The translations under genes and the position numbers were made by a program. Source: a phage. From it: a stretch of 64,000 bases of DNA. Under the pieces are notes generated by a model. It did not search any database. It worked only from the letters and a program-made list of their open reading frames with translations, and was not told the DNA's origin. The stretch lies in sequence record NC_129898.1, one strand, 5' to 3'. Below, one piece after another: positions 2,829 through 43,635 of the stretch (position 1 is the first letter of the stretch; each line of letters starts with the position of its first letter).

Positions 2829-3187
2829 TACCGCACCTCCTCAATAACTTCCACATCTGAACCTACCACAAATGCAAAAGGGCAGGTTTCATGAAAGACA
2901 TCCGGATCGCCGCCAAGCTTGCTAACTATTTCTCCACCACTAATAAACACAAGCTCACCGATATTCATCAGATTGCTGAAATAGTATCCATAATGATTAA
3001 AGAATGCAGCAGGGTCAGGCAGACTGGTAGCCTCAAGCTCTACATCGGTTGAGATTACTTTCTTATCATACCCTCTGGCCTTTTGAGATGCAAGATCTGC
3101 AGAATCCTCAGGCGACCGGAGATGCACAGGAATTGTTTCACCAATAAAGCGTACTTTCATATTCTCACCCAACAACCATAGCTTCAA
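2828..3187 (-). CDS. hypothetical protein (VEIVE-tail family)
   Basis: 119 aa; contains MKVRFIGE and C-terminal DVEVIEEVR. Confidence 0.5.
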   Translation of the reverse strand: MKLWLLGENMKVRFIGETIPVHLRSPEDSADLASQKARGYDKKVISTDVELEATSLPDPAAFFNHYGYYFSNLMNIGELVFISGGEIVSKLGGDPDVFHETCPFAFVVGSDVEVIEEVR

Positions 3188-3428
3188 AAGGGGTCATAAA
3201 CGAATAAACAGCATTATCATCTGCTTCAGGAAATGCCCCCAAAGACTTCATGTCTGAGCCCTTGACAAATACAAGGTTCTGATCAAAAGCTTCTTGTGGA
3301 TCAATCCGATACATATTTCGTAGGGTATCACTTACCTCCTCATCAAGAGGTGAGTATGCTGTGCACGTTTTTCCGATCAAGCTTTGAGAATCAGGATATC
3401 CACCTGAAGTTTTAAAATAAACAATCAT
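3165..3428 (-). CDS. hypothetical protein
   Basis: 87-aa ORF, co-oriented. Confidence 0.45.
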   Translation of the reverse strand: MIVYFKTSGGYPDSQSLIGKTCTAYSPLDEEVSDTLRNMYRIDPQEAFDQNLVFVKGSDMKSLGAFPEADDNAVYSFMTPFEAMVVG

Positions 3429-14246: not shown

Positions 14247-15239
14247 TCAGCAACCACAACTTCCGTAGTGCTTAACCCGTTCTATAACCTCCGCTTGCTT
14301 ACCTTTATTGTAAGGACGGGAGTTTGGACTGGACAGATACCCGGATACACGTCTAATCACACTGATCGTTCCCTCTTCATGGTTTCCACACTCTGGGCAT
14401 ACAAAGCCTTTAGCTGTTGCACTGAACTCACCAGAGAATCCACACTTAAGACATTTATCCACAGGCTGGTTAATACCAAAATACATAATGTGTTTATATC
14501 CGAAATCAACAAGAGCTTCCAAAGCATCTAAGTTGTTTTTCAGATTTGGTGTCTCTATGTACCCAATGTTGCCACCAGAGGAGATCATAGCAAAACCTTC
14601 CTCATACTTCCACTTATCAAAAGGCGAGCTATTGATCCATACTGGCTGATGGAAACTGTTGGTGAGGTATTCATGCTCGTGCTTCAACACTTCTGGGTAT
14701 TCACGATCCAGACAGGTTGCAGCTTTATAGCATAAACTCTCAGAAGGTGTGCCGTACAAGCTAAATGCTAGTCCACTTTCCTTCTTGTATCGCTCACAAG
14801 CATCTTTCATGTGCTGAAGGATTCCAAGAGCTAAAGCCTTGTCACCCTCTCTGCCCAAAATCTGACAGGTTTCATACACACCAATATACCCAATACTGAT
14901 GGAAGCGTACCCGTCATAGAAGAGTTTATCGATACTCTCTTCAGGATCCAGGCTAGCAAGAGCTCCTTCACACCACATGATAGGGTTATGCCCTGCCTTT
15001 GTTCCTTTTAGACGGTTAACTCTTACAAGGTGAGCCTCATATGCCAAATCCAAATATTCGTCAAGAACTGCAAAGAAATCAACACCTTCCGTTTTAGCTT
15101 TTGCCGCAATCATTGGTAGGTTAAGGCTAACAACACCCAAGTTGAATCTGCCAAGGTATTTCTCCTCGCCTGTTACAGGGTCGCTATATTTCGATAAGAA
15201 ACTTCTACACATTATGTTCAAGGTGGTTCGCAAGGCCAC
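14247..15239 (-). CDS. nrdD: anaerobic ribonucleoside-triphosphate reductase, C-terminal part
   Basis: Glycyl-radical-type RVSGYL motif and C-terminal Cys cluster; reading frame remains open upstream of the GTG at 15239. Confidence 0.85.
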   Translation of the reverse strand: MALRTTLNIMCRSFLSKYSDPVTGEEKYLGRFNLGVVSLNLPMIAAKAKTEGVDFFAVLDEYLDLAYEAHLVRVNRLKGTKAGHNPIMWCEGALASLDPEESIDKLFYDGYASISIGYIGVYETCQILGREGDKALALGILQHMKDACERYKKESGLAFSLYGTPSESLCYKAATCLDREYPEVLKHEHEYLTNSFHQPVWINSSPFDKWKYEEGFAMISSGGNIGYIETPNLKNNLDALEALVDFGYKHIMYFGINQPVDKCLKCGFSGEFSATAKGFVCPECGNHEEGTISVIRRVSGYLSSPNSRPYNKGKQAEVIERVKHYGSCGC

Positions 15240-15962
15240 CCCCGCACCATTACGTGCTGCTGCATGTCCCCATGCAGATCAGACTATATCTTCACACTTA
15301 GTGTGTCTACCATTTCGAGTGTCATCAGCTTACACCCTACACCGCTACATTCATCACGGTTAGTCGTTAGGCATTTCGTAACAGAACTCGTAATCATAGT
15401 TATTAGGTGCACCACGTTTCAGGATAGCAGATATTCTTTTTCTATCTATTCCTAAAACATCAGCACAACATCTCAGACTCTTAAAGTGAATAACCACACC
15501 AGTTAATTTGTGGGTGGCTTTCACCCCGTGACATCTTGTGTAAAAAGCATAACAGTTGTTGTCGTATCCTTCTTGAGTATTGTCTGGGCAAGCTCCCCAC
15601 TCAAGGTTGTATACGCTGTTATCTTTCCTGTTGTCACCTTTGTGCTTAACATATGGTAAATTGTCTGGATTTGGTAAAAACGCTTCAGCAACAAGTCTGT
15701 GAACCCTTAGGCAAACAGTCTTTTTGTTCTTGCGTATCCTGACAAGACGGTAACCTGTGTTTATCTCTTCCCACGAATGAATAATTCTTTCATTTTCGTA
15801 TCGGGTGCAATAAACATTGCCCATCTCGTCAATTTCATAACCTTCAAAATCACGAATTTGTTTTCTCATTTCAGGACTCCTCTTAGTCAGGAGTTCTGTT
15901 ACGTTTAGCACGGGATTGTCCGTTCTGGAGTTTCCCCGTTTAGATAGATTTTACATGAGCAG
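15240..15962 (-). mobile_element. intervening sequence splitting nrdD (group I intron or free-standing homing-endonuclease insertion)
   Basis: About 720 bp between the two nrdD reading frames, containing an HNH endonuclease ORF on the same strand. Confidence 0.5.
15360..15869 (-). CDS. HNH homing endonuclease
   Basis: VHRLVAEAF...HKGDNRKDN...NLEW HNH core; ATG at 15869 preceded by AGGAG. Confidence 0.75.
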   Translation of the reverse strand: MRKQIRDFEGYEIDEMGNVYCTRYENERIIHSWEEINTGYRLVRIRKNKKTVCLRVHRLVAEAFLPNPDNLPYVKHKGDNRKDNSVYNLEWGACPDNTQEGYDNNCYAFYTRCHGVKATHKLTGVVIHFKSLRCCADVLGIDRKRISAILKRGAPNNYDYEFCYEMPND

Positions 15963-17132
15963 TTATAGTTTACCCATGCTTGTTACTTTGCCGTCTGTTG
16001 AACCTGTCACTTTACGATTTAGTGGAACAGAAACAAAGTCAGGATAAATCCGCTCTGCAGAGCATTCTAGAGCCAATCGTTTCAAATCGTAGTTAGGATC
16101 CCCAGGGTTCATGTTGACACCCTCCTCTAAGAAGAACAGCACTTTAGGAAACACAGGGGTGATCCGTTCTTCACCAAGACCCATTTTGTGGACTTTCAAG
16201 TAGTTTTTGGTAATCATTCTACCAAAGACCGAGGTATCCAGTCCTAAACTTAATGTGATGAATGGAGTTTGCCCGTTGACAGAAGTTAACGTATTGATTT
16301 GGTAGAGCAAAGTTTGCATACTATCAAACACGTCTTTATCTGTCATTTGCATTGCAACAGTCTCAGCATCTGGCAACCAATGCTCCTGACAAAATTTAAG
16401 GTTCTTCTCATAGGTTGCTTCAGCATACTGTGCCAGATAATGATCAATATGGCTCATGGTTTGACCACCATATTGAGCACTAGCTACTGCACTAGAGATT
16501 TGGCTAAGGATTGTTGTTGCAACCCCTATTGACTTCGGCTTACTGACATGGGCGTTGCCAATGTTGAATCCGTTTTCCAGCATATCCGGATAATTTACCA
16601 AACAACAGTTTGTTAACGGACTGATCAGGTAGTCAAGATCATGCACATGGATGAAGCCTTTGTTGTGCTCTTCGGAGACACGGTCTGGCAGGATCTGTGT
16701 TGATGCAAGATGTTTGCTAAGGATGCCTGCAAGCAGGTCACGATGAGTGTGTACATGATTAGTAGGCTTATTTGCGTTTTCTTTTGTAAATTCATCACAA
16801 GTACGATCCAAGAAGCCACTAATATCTGCAAGCAGTTTTCCACCTGCCTCTCTGTTATTATCTCTTGTCTGTCTATACTGGATGTATTCTCTGGCTGCAC
16901 ATTTTAAACCCATATCCATAAGAGCATCTTCAACAAGGATATGGATATTTTTTACAGAGATCGTGCACTGGTCGGTTGGCAGATTGTTGGCAACAACTTC
17001 ATTAACCGCACAGGCAATCCGGTAAGCTTCTTCTTCAGTATGTCCAGACTCAAGTAAGGCGGACTCTGCCGCCTTGATCACCTTAATTCCGTTATAAAAC
17101 TCTTCTCTACCGTCCCGTTTTACAACTTTCAC
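15963..17132 (-). CDS. nrdD: anaerobic ribonucleoside-triphosphate reductase, N-terminal part (ATP-cone)
   Basis: N-terminal VVKRDGREEFYNGIKV ATP-cone; terminates at a stop immediately 5' of the HNH region. Confidence 0.85.
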   Translation of the reverse strand: MKVVKRDGREEFYNGIKVIKAAESALLESGHTEEEAYRIACAVNEVVANNLPTDQCTISVKNIHILVEDALMDMGLKCAAREYIQYRQTRDNNREAGGKLLADISGFLDRTCDEFTKENANKPTNHVHTHRDLLAGILSKHLASTQILPDRVSEEHNKGFIHVHDLDYLISPLTNCCLVNYPDMLENGFNIGNAHVSKPKSIGVATTILSQISSAVASAQYGGQTMSHIDHYLAQYAEATYEKNLKFCQEHWLPDAETVAMQMTDKDVFDSMQTLLYQINTLTSVNGQTPFITLSLGLDTSVFGRMITKNYLKVHKMGLGEERITPVFPKVLFFLEEGVNMNPGDPNYDLKRLALECSAERIYPDFVSVPLNRKVTGSTDGKVTSMGKL

Positions 17133-23434: not shown

Positions 23435-24037
23435 TCAGACCTCTTTAGCATCAATATACTTGCACACAATCTCAGATGCGCACTCCCAAGGAGCTCCCTC
23501 AGGGTTAACAACATCAAACTCGATACCTTTTATCCCGTTCTTCTCTAGGCTAAGGTAAGTTCTGGAATCATTTCCCCAATCATATCCTGCACGGTGGATA
23601 CGGAACAGTAGAAGATCGCCACCTGTGCTGTATGCGTACTCGCCAAGGCATGCCAGCTCCTCTTTGAAGCCACCATCGGAGTAAACAACAACCCCTTTAC
23701 CTTCAGGGAAATCTTTCTTCAAGGATGCGACTGCGGCCTTACCGAAAGCATCTTCACCAAAGATAGGTTTAATCAGATTTTCACTACAATGGATCATCCA
23801 TTCTCGCGGAGAAACATGCTTGCCGTCTATCATTAAGAACGGGCACGGTTCTTCTTTGTAGCGGCGATCATAAAGTGCATTCCACAACTGTGGTGAAATA
23901 CCAGCTGCCTTAATTGCCACACTGAATAGCATTTCCTTTACCTCGCGGTGATGCGAGTTTGGAATGGCTTCCAACAAAAGATCTGCGATATGGTCTTTTC
24001 CAGAACTTGGTGGAGCATTAAGAACAATAATATCCAT
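23435..24037 (-). CDS. deoxynucleoside monophosphate kinase-like P-loop kinase
   Basis: P-loop LNAPPSSGKDHIADLL resembles T4 gp1 dNMP kinase N-terminus. Confidence 0.55.
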   Translation of the reverse strand: MDIIVLNAPPSSGKDHIADLLLEAIPNSHHREVKEMLFSVAIKAAGISPQLWNALYDRRYKEEPCPFLMIDGKHVSPREWMIHCSENLIKPIFGEDAFGKAAVASLKKDFPEGKGVVVYSDGGFKEELACLGEYAYSTGGDLLLFRIHRAGYDWGNDSRTYLSLEKNGIKGIEFDVVNPEGAPWECASEIVCKYIDAKEV

Positions 24038-30729: not shown

Positions 30730-31200
30730 TTAATCTAGGACAACACCGCCTGACTTTTTAAACACCTCGATCAACTTTTCGATCTTCTGTTCGTGCTGAC
30801 CGTACCCTGCACCTGGAAGGCTTGCCCATCGAGATCTGCAAAGATGGATGGCCTGGTGAATACGACCTTCATCAATATCATCGAGCGCCTTACACTCACG
30901 GATCAGTTGCAACGCAATCTTGTCCTGACTGGCAGGGCCAAAATCTGGTAATCCTAACTGTTTCATATAGTGTTTAGCAAACTTCTCCAGAATCTGGTAA
31001 CGCCCAGCAGCAGAGGAGGTAAGTTTAGCATTTAGCTTAACGTAAACACCTGGATGCTTACTGTAATCGCTAAACAGCTTGCCCCCGACTATGACATCGT
31101 AGCCCCGATCCTTGGTAGGTTGTCTACCATTATCTGTACCTTCTGAATATGCGATCATATCCAAGAAAGCTTTTCGTTGAACATTTTTATCAAGTTTCAT
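30730..31200 (-). CDS. endolysin, lambda R-like lytic transglycosylase family
   Basis: AYSEGTD...YDVIVGG...SAAGRYQIL motifs typical of lambda-lysozyme-like enzymes. Confidence 0.75.
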   Translation of the reverse strand: MKLDKNVQRKAFLDMIAYSEGTDNGRQPTKDRGYDVIVGGKLFSDYSKHPGVYVKLNAKLTSSAAGRYQILEKFAKHYMKQLGLPDFGPASQDKIALQLIRECKALDDIDEGRIHQAIHLCRSRWASLPGAGYGQHEQKIEKLIEVFKKSGGVVLD

Positions 31201-31341
31201 TTTTCATACTCTCCAGTTCACTCATAACGAGCCCTGATCAGCACGTGGCTAGGTTGCACAGTGCATACATCAGGGCATATGTAGGTGCCAATTGAAAACA
31301 CTCATTCAATTGGCTACCGTTATCTACTAAACATACCTACA

Positions 31342-32625
31342 CTATTCCAGAACATCCCAAGTGTCTGGATTAACATTTCGGACGCAGATACCGACAGGGA
31401 ATTGGTAGTTGTTGTCTTCTGTCCTTGCTTGATATTTAAAGGTGACAAACTTGCCGATCATTTCCTGCATCCTGCTATAGCTACGCTCCTCGTGCGTGCC
31501 TTTCATCTTCATTTTAACAACGATGCCTTCCTTGTCAACGCAGATAAGAACACCCTCATCATTCTTATCTTTCTCAACGTCAATAACTTTCACCTCTGCG
31601 TCGTTGAACTTTTTCCATTTCAATGCTTCAGATGTTCGCTGACCGTATTCGTATTTACCACAGAAGTTACGCATGATAGTACCTTCATACCCTTCGGACA
31701 TGAATACACCAACAGATTCTTCGCAATGATCAACTGTGTACGCAATCTCTGCGTCAACAACCTTGATATGGTCAAGCATCAGAGTGGTAATGGTATCTTC
31801 TGCATCCATAAGATCCTTGCAGCGTCCAGACTCTGTTTCTGGATCCCACCACACCTTGTCACTAGGGATATCAAAAATGTGATACTCTAAGTCATAGCTA
31901 CAGTACCCTCCGTAACGCAAATCATCACGAACAGGCTCAACATCAACAGGAATATCTACCTTATTGAAGTTTTTGTATGTTGATAAGCCTGCCTTAATTG
32001 CGGCATGACGGCGTTTTTTATCTGCCTCGTAGTCTTTATCGATCTCGGCCTGAATCTCTTCCTGTGTGCGCCACCGTTTAGCAAGAGACACTATTTTCTG
32101 CAGAGGCAGACCATGAATATAGATCTCTCCGTCGAGCTGTTTAATCCCGGTGGTGAAGTGGAAAGAACGAAGTTGCTCCAGAAGCTTTCCTTGAATAGGG
32201 TAGGACTTATTACCACGGGAAATAAATTTAGGCTCCCCATTTTGGAAAACAACAAGTAGACGAAGGCCATCTAACTTACGCAAGATCCAGCAAGGTAATT
32301 TAAGTGCCTTTCCACGCTTCAGGTAGTCATGCACCAGCATGGGTAAAAGGTCAACGCCCTGCTCGCAATCTTCCATATTTTCAACATACCCCAGACGGAC
32401 TTGTTTTTCCCACTTACTGATCGCTTCCAGCTCAGCCTGTTGCTCAGCTGTAGTTTCATTGGCACGACCAACGTTCTTAGGTGTGCAGATCGTCTCTTTG
32501 TATTGCAGTTTACCGTCAAGCTTGCCAAACTCTACGATAACCTTATCACCATCCGTGAATACTTTCCACTGTTGGTAGCTGCCATCTTTGTTCAGTGCGT
32601 ACAGTGTTGTTTTGATCTGATGCAT
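31342..32625 (-). CDS. ATP-dependent DNA ligase
   Basis: Motif I RKLDGLR (KxDGxR), motif IV EGTIMRN, motif V ALKWKKF; 427 aa. Confidence 0.7.
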   Translation of the reverse strand: MHQIKTTLYALNKDGSYQQWKVFTDGDKVIVEFGKLDGKLQYKETICTPKNVGRANETTAEQQAELEAISKWEKQVRLGYVENMEDCEQGVDLLPMLVHDYLKRGKALKLPCWILRKLDGLRLLVVFQNGEPKFISRGNKSYPIQGKLLEQLRSFHFTTGIKQLDGEIYIHGLPLQKIVSLAKRWRTQEEIQAEIDKDYEADKKRRHAAIKAGLSTYKNFNKVDIPVDVEPVRDDLRYGGYCSYDLEYHIFDIPSDKVWWDPETESGRCKDLMDAEDTITTLMLDHIKVVDAEIAYTVDHCEESVGVFMSEGYEGTIMRNFCGKYEYGQRTSEALKWKKFNDAEVKVIDVEKDKNDEGVLICVDKEGIVVKMKMKGTHEERSYSRMQEMIGKFVTFKYQARTEDNNYQFPVGICVRNVNPDTWDVLE

Positions 32626-32894: not shown

Positions 32895-33189
32895 TGCAGT
32901 CCTCCTTCTCTAATAGGTCTTTTATCGGGTAAACAAGCAGGTGCGGATCGTAATAACTTATAGTCTTATTCTGCCACACTATGAACTTAATTACAACTAA
33001 ATTTACCACATCTTTATCCCCATGTAGTCCAACACACAAATTTGTCCATATTTTGTGGTTGAATACTTTGCTGTCGATGTAGATCTTAGTGTCAAACTTA
33101 TCCTCTATCCTACCTATAAGTTTAACCAATTCTTTCATCTGATCACCAAACACAGCATCGTTTTCAAGATCTCTGGAGTGCTTGTACAT
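32881..33189 (-). CDS. hypothetical protein
   Basis: 102-aa ORF. Confidence 0.45.
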   Translation of the reverse strand: MYKHSRDLENDAVFGDQMKELVKLIGRIEDKFDTKIYIDSKVFNHKIWTNLCVGLHGDKDVVNLVVIKFIVWQNKTISYYDPHLLVYPIKDLLEKEDCNAVI

Positions 33190-33228
33190 AACTTTCTACC
33201 TCACTTGCATACTTTCCGAAACAAGTAA

Positions 33229-33247
33229 AGCCGGGATCGCCCCGGCT
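33229..33247 (-). terminator. terminator-like hairpin
   Basis: AGCCGGG-ATCGC-CCCGGCT 3' of 33254..33967; weak U-tract. Confidence 0.35.
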
Positions 33248-33253
33248 ATGTTA

Positions 33254-33967
33254 TTAAATATATTCTGTTACATCCTTGAAGCTCGAAGGCTTCATAATCT
33301 TACCTTTACTGTCGAGGAATATGATAACTTTATTTCCGTTGTAGAATTCTTCTTTAGCAACAAAACCTTCATAGCGACCATCAAAGCGTCGCTCAAGATC
33401 TTTAATCTCCAACTCGATGAGTTGTTCAGCAGGCATATCTGCACTGGCACCGTGTGAATACCGCAGATGGTTGACGCGTGCAAACTTGCTGTCATTAGAT
33501 TTTAGAACCTTCCGCATCATCCCGCACACATCACCGCGAAGCTGGAACAGCAAAGCTGTTGACAACTCTGCTAAGCGGTAAGCAGACGCTCTTTGCTTAG
33601 AGGTATTTTTCGCAGCGATCAGTGTATCATAAAATTCACCGATCTTAAACTTAAGACCTCGCGGATTATCAAACAGGTTTGACCACTTTTCATGGTTATC
33701 GTTAACAAGATAAGCGGCATAACTTGTGACAACGTGAAGATCGCAGGCCTCTTTTAGGAGATGATCCCCACCATCACCTTTCTCCAACTCTTCCAAAACT
33801 TCATTGAACTCTTCCTCAATGAAACTCAGCTGAAGTTCGAATGGTGTGTATGATTTTTTCACTTTAGCTGCTACACGGTTCCAATTTTCCACCCAGTTGG
33901 CAGACCAAAGGTAGTTTTCAGGCTGAGACAGTTTTTCCAGGTTGTCGATCAGTTTAGTATTCAGCAT
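33254..33967 (-). CDS. MazG-like nucleotide pyrophosphohydrolase candidate
   Basis: IEEEFNEVLEELEK...KEACDL resembles the MazG/HisE EExxE helix; 237 aa; assignment tentative. Confidence 0.4.
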   Translation of the reverse strand: MLNTKLIDNLEKLSQPENYLWSANWVENWNRVAAKVKKSYTPFELQLSFIEEEFNEVLEELEKGDGGDHLLKEACDLHVVTSYAAYLVNDNHEKWSNLFDNPRGLKFKIGEFYDTLIAAKNTSKQRASAYRLAELSTALLFQLRGDVCGMMRKVLKSNDSKFARVNHLRYSHGASADMPAEQLIELEIKDLERRFDGRYEGFVAKEEFYNGNKVIIFLDSKGKIMKPSSFKDVTEYI

Positions 33968-33981
33968 TAAAAGGCCTCCGC

Positions 33982-34743
33982 TTACAGTTCCATAAAGTTT
34001 TCTACGATGTCAATGAATGTTTTATCAGAGAAAGCGTCAACCGCCCCGTTAAACCAAACTGGGATGCCGCGATCCTCATACTGGTAAATGTCACTACGTG
34101 AAATGCCATTCTCCCCTAAATGCTGTGAGTCGTATTTGTTAACGATCAGTAGTTTAGTCCCCTTATTACAGGCAGGGAATAGCTCCCAGTTAAAATTGAT
34201 AACTGTGTTGGAGCACCCTACAAGGATAACCATATCATTGCTCGTCAGAGAAGTCAACAGGTCATACATGTCTACATACTTTGGAGCTACTTCTCCGAAG
34301 AACACTACATTAGGCTTGACCCAAGTATACTCGCTTGCATCTACCTCAGAGTATCCAATGTCTTTAATGACGTCATTCCCTTCATCATCCTCGTAGACTA
34401 TTTCTGGCAAATATCCGTGGACATGTAAAATATCTTCATGTTTTACACCAGCACGCTCCAGCAAATCATCTACATTGGTGGTCAGGTTGATCACACGACC
34501 AGACCAGCGGGAATACCATTCAGCTATCCGGAGATGTGCAAGGTTAGGATCAACACTGCCCAGAGCTACACGCCGTGCATTATAAAAGTCATGCACCTTA
34601 TAGTAGTTCTTGGCAAAGGTGTGGATGTTACACACCTCATCGATGCTGAAATTCTCCCACATTGCAGTGCCACCAGATCGGAAAGTTGGGATACCAGATT
34701 CAGCGCTCAAACCAGCACCGGAGATAATGATCAGTCGTCGCAT
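33982..34743 (-). CDS. Sir2-family (sirtuin-like) NAD-binding protein lacking zinc-ribbon cysteines
   Basis: GAGLSAESGIPTFR, PNLAHxxIA, TTNVDDL and HG motifs in canonical order; no CxxC...CxxC after the HG. Confidence 0.7.
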   Translation of the reverse strand: MRRLIIISGAGLSAESGIPTFRSGGTAMWENFSIDEVCNIHTFAKNYYKVHDFYNARRVALGSVDPNLAHLRIAEWYSRWSGRVINLTTNVDDLLERAGVKHEDILHVHGYLPEIVYEDDEGNDVIKDIGYSEVDASEYTWVKPNVVFFGEVAPKYVDMYDLLTSLTSNDMVILVGCSNTVINFNWELFPACNKGTKLLIVNKYDSQHLGENGISRSDIYQYEDRGIPVWFNGAVDAFSDKTFIDIVENFMEL

Positions 34744-34751
34744 AAGTGTCC

Positions 34752-35102
34752 TCAGTAGATGTTTTGTTTAATTTCTATTCCAAACTTTTTAAACGAGTCA
34801 GCAGCAAGCATGAATTTACGAGCCGCTGATGGGTTAGAAGTATGCACGAAAATCTTCACGTTGTCAACTACAGGAGGCTTACCAAATACAAATTTTTCCT
34901 CCAGTATGCAGAAGCAATCGTATCCTTCAAAAATTTCTCCCAAGTCGCTGTCAAAATGCCACTCAGAAACGCGTCTATATAGCTTTCCCTTGTCATTAAT
35001 GAAATCCATGAACTCAGAAGAACTCTTTAGCCAAAGAGCGTCTGGGAGCCCATAATTTGACGGATCTCTCAAATCATCTAGCCACACAATCAGCTTCTTC
35101 AT
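34752..35102 (-). CDS. hypothetical protein
   Basis: 116-aa ORF. Confidence 0.45.
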   Translation of the reverse strand: MKKLIVWLDDLRDPSNYGLPDALWLKSSSEFMDFINDKGKLYRRVSEWHFDSDLGEIFEGYDCFCILEEKFVFGKPPVVDNVKIFVHTSNPSAARKFMLAADSFKKFGIEIKQNIY

Positions 35103-36034
35103 TGCATATAGTCCTCGTTGTGGAAATAGCAGTCAAGTATCTCACGGCGTTCCTGCTCCAGGAGGCAATTCCACACATCTTCTGTGTAGTTTCTACGAAT
35201 GAAGTTTACCATGCCGTAAAACTCTTCGTCAACACGTTTAAAGATATCATCATCCCAAATCTTCCAAGCTCTACCCCTCATTACGACCTTCCGTGCCAGA
35301 TAGTAGGGAGACTTGATCTTTAGTTGCAGGTCATAAGGGTAGTAAGGCTTACGGATCATATACCCTTCGCCCCTTGTTTCTGCAGCCAACTCTTTTGCAT
35401 AGCTGAACGGAATTTCACGCACAGTGTGAGGACGTTTTGCACCAAGGTATTTGGCAATACCGTCTAAAGCTGCTTCTGGTAGCATTATTCCAGAATCATT
35501 GTATCGGCAACCGATCAAATAGGCACCATGATCTTCCTGAACAATATGCGGGTCTGAAGGGTGACAAATTTCAAACATGAATGTCATGTTTTCATGGCCC
35601 ATAACCTTCTTGATAAGATCTAAATTACCACATTGCTCCTGGATTGTTTCCTTTGCGAGGTTACAATATGGAGAATCAAGAGACCCTGTTGTTGAGAACA
35701 ACAGTTCACCTTTGTGAGATGATACCACACCAAGGAATCCGTTCTTTTTCTCTACCGCCGTCACAAGTTTATTGTCAGGCAGGTTGGTGGAATTTTCTCC
35801 CAAGTTAAACACTTTTGTGAAGGGCCATGCCACAACATTTCCTTCATTACCGACAACAATTCCTCGGCACTCTAGTAAACGCGGAGACAAATGCCATAGA
35901 TTGTTGTAAAATACTTTTCTGGCATATTTATAGATCTTTAACCCAAGATCTGGATAATACCGACTGGTTACAAGACCTTTATTCACTAAATCATCTGCAT
36001 TAAAATACTTCATCATACATTCCTCGTTTGTCAT
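35099..36034 (-). CDS. ligase-family nucleotidyltransferase, probable RNA ligase
   Basis: Motif I VEKKNGF (KxNG, no Arg at +5), motif IV EGYMIRK, motif V LKIKSP; 311 aa; a separate DNA ligase exists at 31342..32625. Confidence 0.55.
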   Translation of the reverse strand: MTNEECMMKYFNADDLVNKGLVTSRYYPDLGLKIYKYARKVFYNNLWHLSPRLLECRGIVVGNEGNVVAWPFTKVFNLGENSTNLPDNKLVTAVEKKNGFLGVVSSHKGELLFSTTGSLDSPYCNLAKETIQEQCGNLDLIKKVMGHENMTFMFEICHPSDPHIVQEDHGAYLIGCRYNDSGIMLPEAALDGIAKYLGAKRPHTVREIPFSYAKELAAETRGEGYMIRKPYYPYDLQLKIKSPYYLARKVVMRGRAWKIWDDDIFKRVDEEFYGMVNFIRRNYTEDVWNCLLEQERREILDCYFHNEDYMQ

Positions 36035-36077
36035 TTTGTCACTCTATCTTGCCACACAAATAAACTAGTGTCAACAC

Positions 36078-36106
36078 TTGAAATGAACAAAAGAGTTATG
36101 TATACT
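36078..36106 (+). promoter_or_regulatory. sigma70-like promoter for the plus-strand kinase operon
   Basis: TTGAAA (36078-36083), 17-nt spacer, TATACT (36101-36106); RBS GGAGG before ATG 36135. Confidence 0.55.
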
Positions 36107-36134
36107 ACCATTAAAATTAAAACGGAGGATTACT

Positions 36135-36545
36135 ATGTCTAAAATGCTATATATCGTGCGTGGTCTACCAGGTTCTGGCAAATCAACACTGGCAAATGCA
36201 CTATCTTTAGAGGGGCTGTACCCACATTTTGAGAACGACATGTTCTGGTACGACGACGATGGAAATTACAACTGGGATGCAAGTAAAGTAACACTTGCAG
36301 CAAAATGGTGCAAAGATAACGTAGAAGATATGATGCGTATGGGATACGACCGTGTCGTGGTAAGTAATACGTTTACAAAAGAAAAACATGTGCAAGAATA
36401 TGTTGACATGGCAATCAGTCATGGGTATAGTTATACTGTGATCGTGGTTGAAAACCGCCACGGTAATAAGAGCATTCATGATGTTCCAGATAGGGTTGTG
36501 GACCGTATGGAGCGTGAGCTTAAAAACTGCATTAAACTAAAATGA
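36135..36545 (+). CDS. P-loop kinase (polynucleotide-kinase-like)
   Basis: Walker A GLPGSGKST near the N-terminus; 136 aa; operonic with a metallophosphoesterase. Confidence 0.6.
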   Translation: MSKMLYIVRGLPGSGKSTLANALSLEGLYPHFENDMFWYDDDGNYNWDASKVTLAAKWCKDNVEDMMRMGYDRVVVSNTFTKEKHVQEYVDMAISHGYSYTVIVVENRHGNKSIHDVPDRVVDRMERELKNCIKLK

Positions 36546-36552
36546 GGGATGT

Positions 36553-37107
36553 ATGAAATATTTTGTAACAAGCGATACACACTTTCTCCACCAGCGAGTC
36601 ATGGAGTTTGATTCATGTCAAAAACACAGATCTCAGTATGATCACAATCTTGACAGTATGAACGAAGGAATCATTGCAGAGTGGAACTCTGTTGTATCAC
36701 CAGAAGACACTGTGTTTCACTTGGGCGATATTGCATGCACTAAGGATAAGAATATCAACAACTTATTTCCAGATATTCTAAATATGTTGAACGGACATAT
36801 TATTCTTGTTCGTGGTAACCATGACACAAGGACGACTGTCAGAATTATGAAAGAGTTCGGTAATGAGGTTGTAGATTATTACGAGCTTCGCCACAACAAG
36901 AATTTGATCTGTATGAGCCATTACCAGTTTGCAAAGTGGAACAGAAAGCCTCACGGATCAGTCCAACTGTTCGGTCATGCTCACGGAACCACACAGCAGT
37001 TGTTTGGCAGGCAGTTTGATGTCGGTTGGGATGTGTGGGGGAGACTCTTACCATTAGAAGAGGCATACCGTATTGCAATGAGTCTTGCTATTGACAGCGG
37101 GGAGTAA
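36553..37107 (+). CDS. calcineurin-like metallophosphoesterase
   Basis: SDTHF (DxH), LGDI (GD), GNHD, GHAHG motifs in order. Confidence 0.75.
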   Translation: MKYFVTSDTHFLHQRVMEFDSCQKHRSQYDHNLDSMNEGIIAEWNSVVSPEDTVFHLGDIACTKDKNINNLFPDILNMLNGHIILVRGNHDTRTTVRIMKEFGNEVVDYYELRHNKNLICMSHYQFAKWNRKPHGSVQLFGHAHGTTQQLFGRQFDVGWDVWGRLLPLEEAYRIAMSLAIDSGE

Positions 37108-37154
37108 TCCCTGCTATTTTAAAGAAAATTGCCACACAAGGAGAATCAGGAGAT

Positions 37155-37505
37155 ATGAAAGAGGAGGATAAGCTGCCATACCTTAAAGTCCCATTTGGAA
37201 TACTGTCTATGTCAAAAGTTTTGAATGATACAACTGGAGAGGTTGTTGTTCTTGACTTGTATGACAAGATCGTATACTGCTACCTGCACAACTGGTATAA
37301 GCTTGGAGGAAATTCACGCTTCACACCCAGCACAAGGAAAATTGCAGCAGATGTTGGGATAAAGAAAACAAAAGCAGCAGCGTGCGTTAAAACTTTAGAA
37401 TGTGCAGGAGTGGTTGAAATATCCACACAAGGGAGAGGTAAAAGATGCACATTTTCCAAAGTTTTGCCACCAGAAGAGGTTATTCGAATGTCAACAACTG
37501 GTTAG
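37155..37505 (+). CDS. helix-turn-helix DNA-binding protein candidate
   Basis: STRKIAADVGIKKTKAAACVKTLECAGVVE HTH-like segment; 116 aa; immediately upstream of the palindrome array. Confidence 0.45.
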   Translation: MKEEDKLPYLKVPFGILSMSKVLNDTTGEVVVLDLYDKIVYCYLHNWYKLGGNSRFTPSTRKIAADVGIKKTKAAACVKTLECAGVVEISTQGRGKRCTFSKVLPPEEVIRMSTTG

Positions 37506-37580
37506 ACCAGTAAAAACTTAAATATCTGTACTATAAGGATTCGTATGTTTTATGTCCATCCAAGAGCAGAGGGTAGTAAC

Positions 37581-37661
37581 TGTCCGTGATACGGACACTA
37601 CTGTCCGTCACGCGGACACATCTGCCCGTAATACGGACACTAACTGTCCGCAATACGGACA
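37581..37661. repeat. array of four 17-bp palindromic operator-like sites at ~21-bp pitch
   Basis: TGTCCGTGATACGGACA (37581-37597), TGTCCGTCACGCGGACA (37602-37618), TGCCCGTAATACGGACA (37623-37639), TGTCCGCAATACGGACA (37645-37661); half-sites TGTCCGT/ACGGACA. Confidence 0.7.
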
Positions 37662-37800
37662 CATAAAGAATATAACTAAAATAACTAAATAATAAAAAAA
37701 AATAAAAGATCTAGTAATTATGGTACTAAAGTACATATACTTAACTTATGTAGAATATACTAGATCCTAAGTACCATGTTTTAAATTTATTACTTACTAT

Positions 37801-38160
37801 TGGTAGTGTCGGCCCTTCATTGGCACTCGCCTACGAGGGGCGAGATGCCGGGCCTCCATAGTGCACACAATGACAGGAGTGCATACATGCAGGACTGTTA
37901 ACATGTGTGGGAGCGAAGCTATAGCGCAGGCCAAAGGCCGAGCACTAATGTGGACCACCGACGAAAGCTTGCCAGCGCCGTAAGGAGTCGGTTGAGAGCC
38001 TCCCGCGCGAGTTTAGTTAAAGTTTATGTGTGGAAACGGACAGGAAGGCCCCTAAATCGCCACACAGCTGCGTAAACTATACCAAGTAAGGCAATCGCAC
38101 CAGTTTGATAGAAAAGCTCGTTACAAAGCGATACAGTGAGTTTTTCTATAACTTGAAGAG
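37801..38160 (+). ncRNA. GC-rich ORF-free structured block (candidate non-coding RNA or leader)
   Basis: No ORF >=60 aa on either strand; nested helix GGCCC/GGGCC, GGCA/TGCC, CTCGCC/GGCGAG at 37811-37854. Confidence 0.25.
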
Positions 38161-38169
38161 GAGGCAGTT

Positions 38170-38748
38170 ATGAGTTCACGCAAAGATGACCGCGAAAAGA
38201 TTGCAAAACGTTATCAGAATGAAGAACAGATGGAGAAAACTTTCAAGTGGAAGCCAGGTTTCCAGCGTAATCATTCTAACGCTCGTGATCGTAAGCATCC
38301 GGATAAGTGGCTAACACCGCCAAATGATGGCATGCAGGTTGGTGATGAGAAGGAGCTATCGCCTGGAAAAGATGGCAACTACATTCGCACTAAGGACGCT
38401 GGTCCAAAGGATGACAGCTATCTTGTAGATAAGGTTCTTGATGGTATTGATGTAGATGTTGACACCACACGGAACTTTTTTCTTGGGTGGTATCGCACAG
38501 GTTTTTTCGACATCAAGGCCATTCGTCGTGTTTGTGATATTAAAAAGTCTGCATATGATGACGACTCGTTACATCGCACCCTGAGGCAATATTCAGAAAG
38601 ATATGGTCATCCGGTTATCACTCTTGACGATGTTGACGAAGTGATGTATCATGCAGAGGTTGTTGCAGGCAGATTTGGTGATGCATATCTTGATATCCTT
38701 TCTGCAAACGATGAGGTAATGTTGAATAAGATTTACTACGAACGTTGA
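38170..38748 (+). CDS. hypothetical protein
   Basis: 192 aa; GAGGAGG RBS upstream. Confidence 0.55.
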   Translation: MSSRKDDREKIAKRYQNEEQMEKTFKWKPGFQRNHSNARDRKHPDKWLTPPNDGMQVGDEKELSPGKDGNYIRTKDAGPKDDSYLVDKVLDGIDVDVDTTRNFFLGWYRTGFFDIKAIRRVCDIKKSAYDDDSLHRTLRQYSERYGHPVITLDDVDEVMYHAEVVAGRFGDAYLDILSANDEVMLNKIYYER

Positions 38749-40045: not shown

Positions 40046-40117
40046 GCCCTGTTAGCTTAGTGGATAAAGCAGCGGCCTTCTAAGCCGTTGACACTGGTTC
40101 GAGTCCAGTACGGGGTG
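40046..40117 (+). tRNA. tRNA-Arg (anticodon TCT)
   Basis: Acceptor GCCCTGT/ACGGGGT, D-stem GCTT/AAGC, anticodon loop CTTCTAA, T-loop TTCGAGT, CCA encoded. Confidence 0.8.
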
Positions 40118-40250
40118 CCAAGTTCTTTTTAATGTAGCTTACTTTAGCAGAGTAAATCTTCGGCAAGTGGCGGTAACCACTTTACCGATACCTCATAGTT
40201 AGTGGTGAGAACACTAGCTATTTTAAAAAGAATTTAAATATTAGTATTTA

Positions 40251-40335
40251 GGTGAGTTAATTCCGTAGGGGTAGCGGGGCAGACTGTAAATCTGTTATCA
40301 TTGCGATTCGGGTGGTTCGACTCCATCACTCACCA
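40251..40335 (+). tRNA. tRNA-Tyr (anticodon GTA), long variable arm
   Basis: Acceptor GGTGAGT/ACTCACC, anticodon loop CTGTAAA, T-loop TTCGACT, discriminator A, CCA encoded. Confidence 0.75.
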
Positions 40336-40452
40336 CCAAATTTATATTTTTAAATGCATAAATCATACAGATAATGGCATTGATATTTATCGTCGTTTAT
40401 ACTAGTCACTAACTGCTCGAAAATCAGTGTCATTATCAGTATTGTTTATAAA

Positions 40453-40540
40453 AGAGGGTAGGGAGCAATGGTGCTCAAGCGGTCTTGAAAACCGTCCCGT
40501 TGAGGATGACTCGATGATGGTTCGATTCCATTATCCTCTG
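40453..40540 (+). tRNA. tRNA-Ser (anticodon TGA), long variable arm
   Basis: Acceptor AGAGGGT/ATCCTCT, anticodon stem GCGGT/ACCGT with loop CTTGAAA, T-loop TTCGATT, discriminator G. Confidence 0.7.
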
Positions 40541-40640
40541 CCATATTGTTGACCTTGTAATTAAGCGAAAGCCGGAAGCAGAACCGGATTATCAAATGTT
40601 ACAGTCGTCATCGCCGACTAGCCACATGGTCAACATATTG

Positions 40641-40737
40641 CGCTAGGTAAGCCCTTTGGCAAGGGCGAGGATTTTTAATCCTGAAAATAGACGAGGTAGT
40701 CGTTGAATACATAGATGGTTCGATTCCATCACCTAGC
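40641..40737 (+). tRNA. atypical 97-nt tRNA-like element (anticodon loop TTTTTAA, possibly UUU)
   Basis: Perfect acceptor GCTAGGT/ACCTAGC, D-stem GCCC/GGGC, canonical T-arm GATGG-TTCGATT-CCATC, but ~30-nt variable region with ACGA-GGTAG-TCGT hairpin. Confidence 0.35.
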
Positions 40738-40743
40738 ACCTTT

Positions 40744-40816
40744 TGCTGATGTAGCACAATTGGCAGTGCAATTGATTTGTAATCAATAGGTTGCAGGTTC
40801 AAGTCCTGCCATCAGC
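40744..40816 (+). tRNA. tRNA-Thr (anticodon TGT)
   Basis: Acceptor GCTGATG/CATCAGC, D-stem GCAC/GTGC, anticodon stem ATTGA/TCAAT with loop TTTGTAA, T-loop TTCAAGT. Confidence 0.8.
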
Positions 40817-40820
40817 ACCA

Positions 40821-40892
40821 TGGCCCTGTAGCTGGAAGGTTCAAGCAAGCGACTCATAATCGCCAGACGGTGGTTCAATTCCACCCAGGGCC
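40821..40892 (+). tRNA. tRNA-Met or Ile2 (anticodon CAT), elongator-type
   Basis: Acceptor GGCCCTG/CAGGGCC with paired 1:72, anticodon loop CTCATAA, T-loop TTCAATT. Confidence 0.7.
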
Positions 40893-40907
40893 ACCAAATT
40901 ATAAATA

Positions 40908-40981
40908 CTCCGCGTAGCTCAGCTTGGTAGAGCGCCTGATTTGGGATCAGGAGGTCGAGTGTTCGAATCACTCCGTGGAGA
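40908..40981 (+). tRNA. tRNA-Pro (anticodon TGG)
   Basis: Acceptor CTCCGCG/CGTGGAG (C1:G72), D-arm GCTCAGCTTGGTAGAGC, anticodon stem CCTGA/TCAGG with loop TTTGGGA, T-loop TTCGAAT. Confidence 0.8.
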
Positions 40982-41030
40982 CCACCTTTAGTTATACTTT
41001 AAACATATACACACAAAAGGAACCTTTAAA

Positions 41031-41804: not shown

Positions 41805-42088
41805 GAGCCACCGTATTATTAGTTGCTTGCTTGCTTCTGTGCGGATGCGCGACAAGTGTCGAAAAAGAATATAAGATTGATCCTCCGGATGTGGGAAGAT
41901 TGATTGTTAAACCGCCCGAAGGTGCTATGAAGCCTCCTGCTAAAGCTATACCTTTAAAGAAAGGTGCGCCTGATGCGGTGAATTCTGGCATTATGAGGGA
42001 TAATAACCTGTCTTGCAGTAATGATAGGGCTAAATTGATCATTTTGCAAGACTATATTAGAACACTGTTTCCAAAGGAGAGAGGTTAA
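41801..42088 (+). CDS. o-spanin (Rz1-like) lipoprotein candidate
   Basis: Signal peptide with Cys-containing lipobox-like LLLCGCAT, proline-rich mature region (DPPDVG, KPPEG, KPPAK). Confidence 0.55.
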   Translation: MRATVLLVACLLLCGCATSVEKEYKIDPPDVGRLIVKPPEGAMKPPAKAIPLKKGAPDAVNSGIMRDNNLSCSNDRAKLIILQDYIRTLFPKERG

Positions 42089-43635
42089 TGTCTAAGATTT
42101 ACGGACCGTGTTCTGAAAAGCAGAAGATGATCCTTGAAAACGATGCAGACATTCTTGTCATTGGTGGTGCGGCTGGTTCAGGTAAGTCGTTCCTCCTGCA
42201 GTTGATGCCGCTTAAAATTATTGATGATCCGCACAGCTCTGTGGTTATGTTCCGAAGAACAACTCCACAGTTGGAAGGTGAGGGTGGGCTATGGCCTAAA
42301 GCAGTAGCTATTTACAGTGATCTGCCTGAAAACATTAAACCAAAGTTCAGAGAGAAGGATCATAAGTTTATTTTTCCACGGTTTGATCCGAGCACTGGCA
42401 AGTGGGACAGGAGCAAAAAAGGGGCCGTTGTAAAATACTGCCACATGGAGTATGTCCAAGATAAGCTTAACCATCAAGGCCTTGAGTACACCATGGTTTG
42501 CTTCGATGAAGGCACGCAATTCGAATGGGAGCAGATAGACTATTTGATGTCTCGTCTGCGATCTCAGTCAAAGTATCCATCAAGAATGGTTATCAGTTGT
42601 AACCCCGACTCAGAACACATGCTTGCCAAACTGGTTAGGTGGTGGTTGGACGATGAAGGGTATCCAGATCCGGAGAAATGTGGTAAGAAAAGATATTTTA
42701 TCCGACGCGACGGTGAGTTTATCTGGGGAGACTCTAAAGAGGAGTTAATAGAGAAATACACCACGGTTAACGGACTGGGTGTGGAGATCAAGCCAAGACC
42801 GTTGTCATTCTCGTTTATAGGTGCAACAATTTTCGATAATCCTGTCTGCTTGAGAGACAACCCAGAATACCTTGCTTTCCTTGAAGGTCTACCAGAGCTT
42901 GAAAAAGCCCAGCTTCTTCATGGCAACTGGTTTGCCAAACCTGAGGGTGCAAACTATTTCCAAAGATCTTTCCTTCGTGATGCCGATAGAGTACCTCTTG
43001 GATCAGTATCTTGCAGGGCATGGGATAAGGCAGGAACCGAGAGAACTTCCGGTAATAAATTTCCTGACTTTACTGCCAGTGTTAAGGTAAGTAAAGATAG
43101 CGACGGTTTTTATTACCTGTCCGGGGATTATTGTCCTGAGAACGTGGATGACGGTAGGTATTCCACAGGTCTGGAAGGTAAGTTCTGTAAAAAGGCTGGG
43201 GAACGAGATGTGATCATCAGGAAACAGGCGCAGTTTGATGGAGATGATTGCATAATCGTATTTTCTGTGGACCCCGGTCAGGCAGGTAAGAGTGAGTTCT
43301 TAACCTCGTCCAGATCCTTGCTCGCCGAAGGGTTCAGGGTTGAAGAAGATCCGATGCCTTCCAACAAATCTAAACTGACAAGGTTCTCACCTTTTGCCAA
43401 TCTTGCCCAACAAGGAATGGTGAGGATTGTAAAATCCAGTTTCCATCCTGACACTCTGGAAGCATTTTTGACTGAACTTGAAAAGTTCAACGGGGAAAGA
43501 TCAACATTTAACAGAAAAGACGACTGGGCCGACTGTGTAGCTTCTGCGATTAATTTCCTGGAGAAAGAGGAGGTAGCGCTGCCTTGTGTTATTCCATCAA
43601 TCTCATCACCTTCTATGTTCAAGCGTTTTATCTAA
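42088..43635 (+). CDS. terL: terminase large subunit
   Basis: Walker A VIGGAAGSGKS and Walker B MVCFDEGTQ in the N-terminal ATPase; 515 aa; heads the structural module. Confidence 0.85.
   Translation: MSKIYGPCSEKQKMILENDADILVIGGAAGSGKSFLLQLMPLKIIDDPHSSVVMFRRTTPQLEGEGGLWPKAVAIYSDLPENIKPKFREKDHKFIFPRFDPSTGKWDRSKKGAVVKYCHMEYVQDKLNHQGLEYTMVCFDEGTQFEWEQIDYLMSRLRSQSKYPSRMVISCNPDSEHMLAKLVRWWLDDEGYPDPEKCGKKRYFIRRDGEFIWGDSKEELIEKYTTVNGLGVEIKPRPLSFSFIGATIFDNPVCLRDNPEYLAFLEGLPELEKAQLLHGNWFAKPEGANYFQRSFLRDADRVPLGSVSCRAWDKAGTERTSGNKFPDFTASVKVSKDSDGFYYLSGDYCPENVDDGRYSTGLEGKFCKKAGERDVIIRKQAQFDGDDCIIVFSVDPGQAGKSEFLTSSRSLLAEGFRVEEDPMPSNKSKLTRFSPFANLAQQGMVRIVKSSFHPDTLEAFLTELEKFNGERSTFNRKDDWADCVASAINFLEKEEVALPCVIPSISSPSMFKRFI

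Follow-up and report, generated by a model that had tools for sequence, protein, structure and literature searches.

Defenses that cleave tRNA (PrrC, RloC, Cas13, retron and PARIS effectors) are now recognized as common, and few ways of reversing the damage are known, RNA repair by phages among them. According to database annotation, phage T4 counters the PrrC anticodon nuclease with Pnkp (PseT) and Rnl1 (gp63). In bacterial Pnkp a calcineurin-type healing phosphatase is the rule, and the metallophosphoesterase domain of the Clostridium thermocellum enzyme (CthPnkp) is a 2',3'-cyclic phosphodiesterase (PMC2190708). In the fungal Mucorales, sealing and healing reside on separate proteins, with a split, 'sealing-only' Trl1 (PMC10946435). 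Among phages, Iyer, Burroughs, Anantharaman and Aravind (2022; Viruses 14:1977, PMC9503650, section 3.7.3, Fig. 5f) described a sirtuin-centered, predicted NAD (nicotinamide adenine dinucleotide)-utilizing RNA-repair neighborhood found in 'Escherichia phage V5 and Proteus phage Mydo', and an adjacent kinase and ligase of Pakpunavirus Adele were read likewise in a 2025 paper (PMC12846349). The present analysis concerns a gene cluster of this kind in a 64,000-nucleotide stretch of phage sequence record NC_129898.1 (the window): an Rnl1-family RNA ligase, a Pnk-type kinase and a metallophosphoesterase, accompanied by three accessory genes (Table 1).

The cluster most likely serves T4-like heal-and-seal repair of RNA, probably tRNA, after cuts by metal-independent host nucleases. 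It comprises the same genes as the neighborhood of PMC9503650, in the same phage genus (T4-like tRNA ligase, cREC, nucleotide kinase, sirtuin, MazG pyrophosphatase and calcineurin-like phosphoesterase), and no difference of substance separates the two. The emphasis differs: the published account treats the phosphoesterase as occasional and the sirtuin as the center, whereas a census of 80 loci places ligase, kinase and phosphoesterase at the core, with sirtuin, cREC and MazG as a restricted add-on. The window derives from a Vequintavirus (rV5-like E. coli phage) with 96.8% identity to phage FV3; the closest relative of the region is Escherichia phage EPFV3-03/2025 (98.7% identity), and related genomes number more than 100. 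Their GenBank records already name the genes 'RNA ligase', '3'-phosphatase 5'-polynucleotide kinase', 'phosphoesterase' and 'cyclic-phosphate processing receiver domain-containing protein'. An earlier note on this DNA had read three adjacent open reading frames (ORFs) as a split RNA repair module. All three ORFs and every motif quoted for them are present, and family, fold, linkage and fusion evidence indirectly support the heal-and-seal interpretation; the suggestion of novelty falls to the existing GenBank names and to the published description of the phage V5 neighborhood. The observation holds and its outline reading is right, but the module was drawn incompletely and is not new; the gene set is common in phages.

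Table 1. Positions and supporting evidence for the repair cluster and other features of the window (aa, amino acids; nt, nucleotides; dNMP, deoxynucleoside monophosphate)
Feature	Position	Strand	Size	Evidence or detail
dNMP kinase	23435-24037			phrog_139, E 3e-43
ATP-dependent DNA ligase	31342-32625			DNA_ligase_A_M and OB_2; phrog_114, E 1.6e-82
Terminator-like GC-rich hairpin and T run	33229-33247	-		8-pair stem with 6 GC pairs, then TTACTTGTTT
MazG-like nucleotide pyrophosphohydrolase	33254-33967	-	237 aa	phrog_671 'nucleotide pyrophosphohydrolase', E 5.4e-22
Sirtuin, Sir2 family	33982-34743	-	253 aa	SIR2, E 1.7e-26; phrog_2162, E 3e-108
cREC, cyclic-phosphate-processing receiver domain (predicted metal-independent cyclic phosphodiesterase)	34752-35102	-	116 aa
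Rnl1-family ATP-dependent RNA ligase (predicted sealing enzyme)	35099-36034	-	311 aa
Putative ligase-operon promoter, back-to-back with the next	36046-36074	-		TTGACA 36074-36069, 17-nt spacer, extended -10 TGgCAAGAT 36054-36046
Sigma-70-like promoter for kinase and phosphoesterase	36078-36106	+		TTGAAA-17-TATACT; 10/12 consensus positions, consensus match only
Stand-alone Pnk-type polynucleotide 5'-OH kinase (predicted 5'-end healer)	36135-36545	+	136 aa
Binuclear metallophosphoesterase, aq_1665 clade (predicted 2',3'-cyclic phosphodiesterase/3'-phosphatase, 3'-end healer)	36553-37107	+	184 aa
tRNA cluster	40046-40984
tRNA, probably tRNA-Tyr	40251-40335	+		Rfam 39 bits, anticodon region GTA; annotated likewise in FV3; not reported by ARAGORN
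Further element of the tRNA cluster	40453-40539
tRNA-like element	40642-40738		97 nt	ARAGORN call with 4-base anticodon

Ligase, kinase and phosphoesterase

The motifs of the three proteins are not chance resemblances, given the Pfam and PHROG matches and the invariance of the residues across 46 to 51 homologs of each protein. The ligase carries VEKKNGF (residues 94 to 100), EGYMIRK (residues 223 to 229) and LKIK (residues 238 to 241), and matches Pfam RNA_lig_T4_1 (PF09511) over residues 55 to 245 with the whole model covered (55.7 bits against a cut-off of 28.3), as well as phrog_562 (E 8e-66). BLASTP aligns it with T4 Rnl1 (E 4e-10; 26% identity over the N-terminal ~175 residues), which is also the sole match of a 51-homolog profile in the PDB (E 3e-14). 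K96 is aligned with K99 of T4 Rnl1, R57 with R54, K74/F76 with K75/F77, E155 with E159, E223-G224 with E227-G228, and K239/K241 with K240/K242. Nucleotidyltransferase motifs I, III, IV and V and the Rnl1-specific upstream Arg, Lys and Phe are invariant in the 51 homologs, as is Asn98 of motif I, which has the form KxNG. The score against the NCBIfam equivalog for T4 RnlA (TIGR02308) is 38.4 bits, where the cut-off is 242. As judged from these profiles, the protein is a member of the Rnl1 family and not a T4 RnlA ortholog or equivalog.

Structurally, the AlphaFold2 model of the ligase (predicted local distance difference test, pLDDT, 90.4) retrieves the Trl1 ligase domain (Trl1-LIG, the best match), T4 Rnl1 and archaeal Rnl3 at the top of a Foldseek search (E ~1e-12, template modeling score, TM, ~0.6), with DNA ligases at E 1.5e-5 or weaker. 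The enzyme is therefore an RNA ligase of the Rnl1 family, with its activity predicted, and not a second DNA ligase. The earlier note had argued that a redundant DNA ligase was unlikely here, and this holds: the fold is nearest to RNA ligases, and the canonical ATP-dependent DNA ligase is indeed encoded separately. A GAGGA Shine-Dalgarno sequence precedes Met7/8, homolog alignments start there, and residues 1 to 7 are disordered in the model (pLDDT <50), so translation probably starts at Met7 or Met8, at 36016 or 36013.

The ligase bears another inherited name in GenBank, 'RNA ligase 1 and tail attachment protein'. Taken at face value, this name and the PHROG name would make it mainly a tail-fiber attachment factor, which T4 gp63 is as well as a ligase. 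Such a role is hardly credible: the name was carried over from T4, the catalytic residues of the ligase are all invariant, and the gene stands not among tail genes but in an early-type operon with healing enzymes, with fusion to the kinase in some phages.

The kinase contains the P-loop GLPGSGKST (residues 10 to 18) and matches AAA_33 (E 5e-11) and phrog_505 'polynucleotide kinase' (E 4e-10). The top PDB matches of its 48-sequence profile are the Rhizopus kinase 9d8a (best), a second fungal stand-alone kinase, Capnocytophaga Pnkp1 (4xrp), T4 Pnk, PSTK and the CthPnkp kinase domain. Its AlphaFold2 model (pLDDT 91) gives TM scores of 0.72 to 0.78 to T4 Pnk, the CthPnkp kinase and PSTK in Foldseek, and of 0.44 to 0.60 to UMP-CMP, gluconate, shikimate and adenylate kinases. 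G10 to T18 and D35 are invariant in the homologs; in a hidden Markov model (HMM) alignment K16 corresponds to K15 of T4 Pnk and D35 to the T4 general base D35. Also invariant is an ENRH sequence (R108, H109) in the loop 106 to 118 after the last strand, which the HMM leaves unaligned to the T4 lid residue Arg126. The kinase thus groups with polynucleotide and tRNA kinases and not with dNMP kinases, and activity on 5'-OH RNA is predicted. A dNMP kinase was the alternative that the earlier note had proposed to check by profile search; it is ruled out, with phrog_139 assigning the dNMP kinase of the phage to another gene. Because a separate DNA ligase and a separate dNMP kinase are present, ligase and kinase do not duplicate roles in DNA metabolism. 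Single-sequence PDB searches were uninformative for the ligase, kinase and cREC, whereas homolog profiles gave matches for ligase, kinase and phosphoesterase; a PADLOC scan returned weak P-loop similarities for the kinase only and no match for the other proteins.

The phosphoesterase displays the motifs D8-x-H10, G58-D59, G88-N89-H90-D91 and G141-H142-x-H144 and matches Pfam Metallophos (E 1.6e-6; 29.1 bits against a cut-off of 21.5) and phrog_547 (E 1.6e-52). Its metal ligands (D8, H10, D59, N89, H90, H123, H142 and H144) are invariant in 46 homologs. The profile places Aquifex aq_1665 (1xm7) first in the PDB (E 5.7e-32), followed by the phosphodiesterases GpdQ, MJ0936, Rv0805 and YfcE, and yields no lambda-phosphatase or CthPnkp match there. 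Motif II reads GDIACTK, as opposed to the GDxxDRG of lambda-phosphatase and Pnkp enzymes. These alignments assign the protein to the aq_1665 clade, apart from the lambda-phosphatase/Pnkp type and from the protein phosphatases, the latter being the outcome that the earlier note had named as damaging. Nor is a calcineurin-type rather than HAD-type healer unusual in itself, as had been proposed, since CthPnkp uses one and this type is the rule in bacterial Pnkp (PMC2190708).

The same assignments bear on whether the module processes DNA ends, in phage DNA replication, recombination or repair, rather than RNA. It adjoins replication and nucleotide-metabolism genes, T4 Pnk acts on DNA too, and the phosphoesterase shows weak similarity to the NCBIfam ligase-associated PdeM (E 2.5e-4). 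This is nevertheless very improbable, given that the fold and profile of the ligase match RNA ligases, that a dedicated DNA ligase is present, and that kinase and phosphoesterase are found together alongside two families of RNA ligase, as described below.

Linkage of the triad across phages

Genomic neighborhood analysis covered 80 viral contigs (IMG/VR) encoding a ligase 36 to 88% identical, with neighbors sought within 8 kb. The kinase is present in 71 loci and the phosphoesterase in 62, whereas cREC occurs in 10, Sir2 in 11 and MazG in 13, in a tblastn screen to which divergent genes for cREC or Sir2 might be invisible. The triad of ligase, kinase and phosphoesterase is usually contiguous and co-directional and occurs in at least four gene orders, which include phosphoesterase-ligase-kinase, kinase-ligase-phosphoesterase and ligase-phosphoesterase-kinase; stop and start codons often overlap where the phosphoesterase adjoins the kinase or the ligase. 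In 11 loci kinase and ligase are fused in one ORF of 421 to 432 aa with AAA_33 and RNA_lig_T4_1 domains. Separate kinase and ligase polypeptides are the commonest layout (69 of the 80 loci lack the fusion), so the three separate polypeptides that had been called unusual are not.

The pairing of the healing enzymes extends beyond this ligase. Kinase homologs chosen independently of the ligase are directly followed by a phosphoesterase of the aq_1665 clade (BLASTP 2e-18; hhalign 6e-41), and one freshwater phage lineage carries an Rnl5-type ligase (OB domain and PF09414) 1.8 kb downstream. Because gene orders are shuffled, kinase and ligase can be fused, and the pair occurs with two ligase families, functional coupling is the simplest reading. 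Ligase, kinase and phosphoesterase constitute a widespread core; ~145-kb enterobacterial phages add cREC, the sirtuin and the MazG-like enzyme to it as accessories. Of 50,697 records in a phage database, 763 contain the ligase and 621 the kinase, with a near-identical genus distribution; the phosphoesterase is broader (1355 records) and includes phages of Staphylococcus, Listeria and Enterococcus, none of which is in the top ten of the host genera listed for the ligase.

This wider range raises the possibility that RNA repair is the work of ligase and kinase only, while the phosphoesterase, cREC, sirtuin and MazG-like enzyme share an early-gene neighborhood as counter-defense against immune nucleotides (cyclic oligonucleotides, ADP-ribose derivatives or alarmones), a function compatible with repair. 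The nearest characterized relatives of the phosphoesterase are the small-molecule phosphodiesterases listed above, the kinase-ligase fusion loci do without it, and the literature gives phage cREC, Nudix and MazG enzymes such roles. Two arguments make this unlikely: the phosphoesterase adjoins the kinase or ligase in many orders and trails the kinase even with another ligase family, and its loss would leave the triad with nothing to heal 3' ends, no HAD, 2H or HD domain having turned up in the scanned genes surrounding the module.

For the repair of RNA by all three enzymes, the following scheme is proposed on the basis of the family membership, intact catalytic residues, predicted folds, linkage and fusion observed; its substrates, order of steps and trigger are inferred. 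Two back-to-back promoters at the main strand switch of the genome would drive the system. A metal-independent host ribonuclease (an anticodon nuclease of the PrrC or RloC kind, or another HEPN-type effector) would cut tRNA or another RNA, after which the kinase would phosphorylate the 5'-OH and the phosphoesterase would open and remove the cyclic phosphate to leave a 3'-OH, a step to which cREC may contribute. The ligase would then self-adenylylate at Lys96, pass AMP to the 5'-phosphate and seal the break. In addition, cREC, the sirtuin and the MazG-like enzyme may supply an NAD-dependent side route for 2'-phosphate ends.

Several points weigh against this scheme. Lys119 of T4 Rnl1 is replaced by Thr116 in the phage ligase, and Arg38 of T4 Pnk by Trp38 in the kinase, whose lid arginines are left unaligned by the HMM. 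The structure prediction that the earlier note had recommended for the ligase C-terminus gives helices only (residues 243 to 305), and the profile alignment ends at T4 residue 249. This helical tail of ~65 residues compares with ~120 in T4 Rnl1, where residues ~255 to 374 form the helical tRNA-specificity domain; because the tail has about half the length of that domain, tRNA is unproven as the substrate. The nearest solved relative of the phosphoesterase, aq_1665, has no assigned function, and its clade differs from that of the proven RNA-end healers. No phosphoesterase homolog lies within 8 kb of the 11 fusion loci, and many of the 80 loci are mutually related, so that the counts are not independent events. 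We know of no cognate host nuclease for rV5-like phages, and literature searches on rV5/Vequintavirus RNA repair, cREC and phage sirtuins found no biochemical or genetic test.

Around the fusion genes and other kinase-phosphoesterase loci, Pfam scans revealed no additional phosphoesterase or ligase. In both of the fusion loci inspected, a conserved protein of 229 to 236 aa with no Pfam match is encoded upstream of the fusion (comparison stretches L038, 6283-6993, and L050, 6398-7087); neither locus has a phosphoesterase homolog, and this protein is a candidate for the 3'-end healer that they lack.

Accessory genes and genomic context

The module as drawn in the earlier note is too small: three overlooked genes encoding cREC, a sirtuin and a MazG-like enzyme belong to it, and all six genes lie within 33254-37107. 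The last 4 nt of the ligase gene, with its stop codon, overlap the start of cREC. The protein matches Pfam PF20274 cREC_REC with 51.1 bits (cut-off 27; E 2.3e-13) and also phrog_1479 (E 2e-32). The motifs W-DD-RDP, HFDxDLGE, VH(T/S)SNPSA and K(F/Y)MLA are invariant in 11 homologs, as are the receiver-like residues DD (9-10), D51/D53, T88-S89 and K96. A single-sequence search of the PDB found no relative of cREC with a solved structure, and its catalysis is a published prediction (PMC9503650). The nearest solved structures of the sirtuin are CobB (1s5p) and Sirt5 (E 3e-21), with which its GAGxS motif and the catalytic His of 'HVHG' align. The Cys4 zinc module is absent, and the aligned zinc-ribbon region contains no cysteines. 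The MazG-like protein has only PRA-PH as a Pfam match, below threshold. The terminator-like hairpin lies 7 nt past the MazG-like stop and is the sole one in 33000-38300 (reported once per strand). From this arrangement, the ligase is read as the first gene of a four-gene minus-strand operon, ligase-cREC-Sir2-MazG, closed by the hairpin.

The presence of the accessory genes raises the question of whether a Trl1/Tpt1-like, NAD-dependent pathway is the main route, as proposed by Iyer et al. (2022; PMC9503650). Here cREC would open the cyclic phosphate to a 3'-OH/2'-phosphate end, the ligase would seal a junction bearing the 2'-phosphate, and the sirtuin would move that phosphate to NAD+ in the manner of KptA/Tpt1, with cREC, the phosphoesterase or MazG clearing the resulting ADP-ribose cyclic phosphate. 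Ligase, cREC, Sir2 and MazG share one operon, and the same four genes and the kinase stay together in related ~145-kb phages. The KxNG motif I of the ligase with its invariant Asn98 recalls fungal Trl1, which has KANG, and the best Foldseek match is the Trl1 ligase domain. Also in its favor are the neighborhoods of Pakpunavirus and Otagovirus described below. The pathway is nonetheless doubtful as the main route: cREC, Sir2 or MazG occurs in only 10 to 13 of the 80 ligase loci against 62 for the phosphoesterase, so the core system works without a sirtuin, and by sequence the ligase matches not Trl1 but T4 Rnl1, which needs no 2'-phosphate. We know of no sirtuin with RNA 2'-phosphotransferase activity.

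A further reading, of low probability, gives the operon a second, NAD-dependent 3'-healing route. In this route cREC would act as a new 2',3'-cyclic phosphodiesterase that needs no metal, and the sirtuin, which lacks the zinc module, as an RNA 2'-phosphotransferase functionally analogous to Tpt1/KptA. It would run beside a metallophosphoesterase route, whose kinase-phosphoesterase cassette is portable and combines with two or more families of RNA ligase. If so, this would be the first sirtuin with RNA-repair chemistry, and the cREC and aq_1665 families would each gain a first activity; the sirtuin/cREC healing idea itself has been published as a prediction (PMC9503650).

In Pakpunavirus and Otagovirus, the ligase-kinase pair lies near NAD-salvage genes (NAMPT/NAPRT and phosphoribosyl pyrophosphate synthase; Pseudomonas phage EM, L006, 7444-9651; phiPsa300, L005, 3735-4771 and 6910-10824). 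The same neighborhoods also contain a Poa1p-like Macro domain, a Nudix protein and an HD hydrolase. RNA repair is thus recurrently linked to NAD/ADP-ribose metabolism beyond the sirtuin-bearing phages.

The TTGAAA-17-TATACT site reported upstream of the kinase is present. A scan over 5.3 kb found 20 promoter-like sites against 11.6 expected from shuffles, and the match carries weight mainly because it is sited in a 100-bp divergent intergenic region; GenBank records of relatives annotate promoters in the same stretch. The putative ligase-operon promoter was read by eye and is below the scan threshold, with only 3/6 positions in its -10 element. A transcript starting near 36039 would give a ~25-nt leader with the GAGGA for Met7/8.

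Divergence of the two transcription units follows the organization of the genome. From 10.7 to 36.0 kb the minus strand carries all ORFs of at least 200 aa except one overlapping the DNA-ligase gene, and such ORFs from 42 kb onward are almost all on the plus strand. The sign of the GC skew flips at 36 kb, at the intergenic region ~36035-36134, which may be a point of replication or transcription divergence. The 'split' layout arises because the module straddles this main strand switch (~36.0-36.1 kb) and reflects nothing more; a regulatory peculiarity is ruled out by the coincidence with the strand and GC-skew switch and by the co-directional genes of every other lineage. Within the census, divergence is seen only in rV5-like loci.

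A tRNA cluster lies downstream as reported, although its nearness alone is no proof of function in tRNA repair. A tRNA-Ser(UGA) scores best against the tRNA-Sec model, yet below threshold. Splicing of the 97-nt tRNA-like gene was considered as the purpose of the ligase, with no evidence for it.

Other observations concern relatives and neighboring genes. About 20 GenBank 'Campylobacter phage' records (host C. jejuni; for example MG065652, MG065644 and MG065690) are 94 to 99% identical to the rV5-like region, which suggests contamination or wrong host assignment. FV3 and HMD-6 carry an HNH endonuclease gene (684 to 717 nt) beside lysozyme, upstream of the DNA ligase (L001, 1297-2643, and L002, 1327-2643, compared with 30730-31342 of the window); in the window no HNH gene separates lysozyme (30730-31200) from the DNA ligase (31342), so the presence of this homing endonuclease is polymorphic. 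In HMD-6 (L093, 13512-16397), the large subunit of anaerobic ribonucleotide reductase is annotated as two pieces with an HNH homing endonuclease between them. Two ORFs of the window match these pieces (14247-15239 and 15963-17132, within 14247-17132 on the minus strand), and an intron or intein probably interrupts the gene. The terminase large subunit is split in HMD-6 and intact in the window (42088-43635). HMD-6 is also annotated with two ribosome hibernation-factor-like genes, 'sigma 54 modulation factor' and 'RaiA' (L093, 2507-3231, about 2500-3250 of the window).

Comparison with T4, bacterial and fungal repair systems

The ligase-kinase-metallophosphoesterase triad represents a widespread phage repair kit distinct from the textbook T4 enzymes. 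Its value is as a well-conserved target for biochemistry, above all of the aq_1665-type phosphoesterase, cREC and the sirtuin, and not as a discovery.

With T4 Pnkp and Rnl1 the cluster shares the Rnl1 ligase family and its catalytic residues, the kinase fold with its P-loop and Asp35, and the heal-then-seal logic. Unlike the T4 kinase, which is fused to a HAD (DxDxT) phosphatase, the phage kinase stands alone, with the metallophosphoesterase as the candidate 3'-end healer and cREC as a second candidate. The phage ligase has only 26% identity to its T4 counterpart over the N-terminal ~175 residues, falls far below the RnlA equivalog cut-off and has a much shorter C-terminal region.

The bacterial Pnkp systems (Clostridium thermocellum Pnkp/Hen1; Capnocytophaga Pnkp1-Rnl-Hen1) likewise combine a kinase, then a binuclear metallophosphoesterase healer, with an adenylyltransferase ligase (PMC2190708), and the phage kinase profile matches both Pnkp1 4xrp and the CthPnkp kinase. 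However, the phage components are three separate ORFs on two strands rather than one trifunctional polypeptide, the phosphoesterase belongs to the aq_1665 clade and has a different motif II, and the ligase is of the Rnl1 type.

Fungal Trl1 and Tpt1 splicing resembles the phage cluster in its heal-and-seal pathway and in its similar ligase fold, and the best match of the kinase is the stand-alone Rhizopus enzyme 9d8a. The 3' ends are handled differently: the cyclic phosphodiesterase of Trl1 is of the 2H type, with Tpt1 removing the 2'-phosphate, whereas the phage cluster contains neither, its predicted analogs of the two being the sirtuin and cREC.

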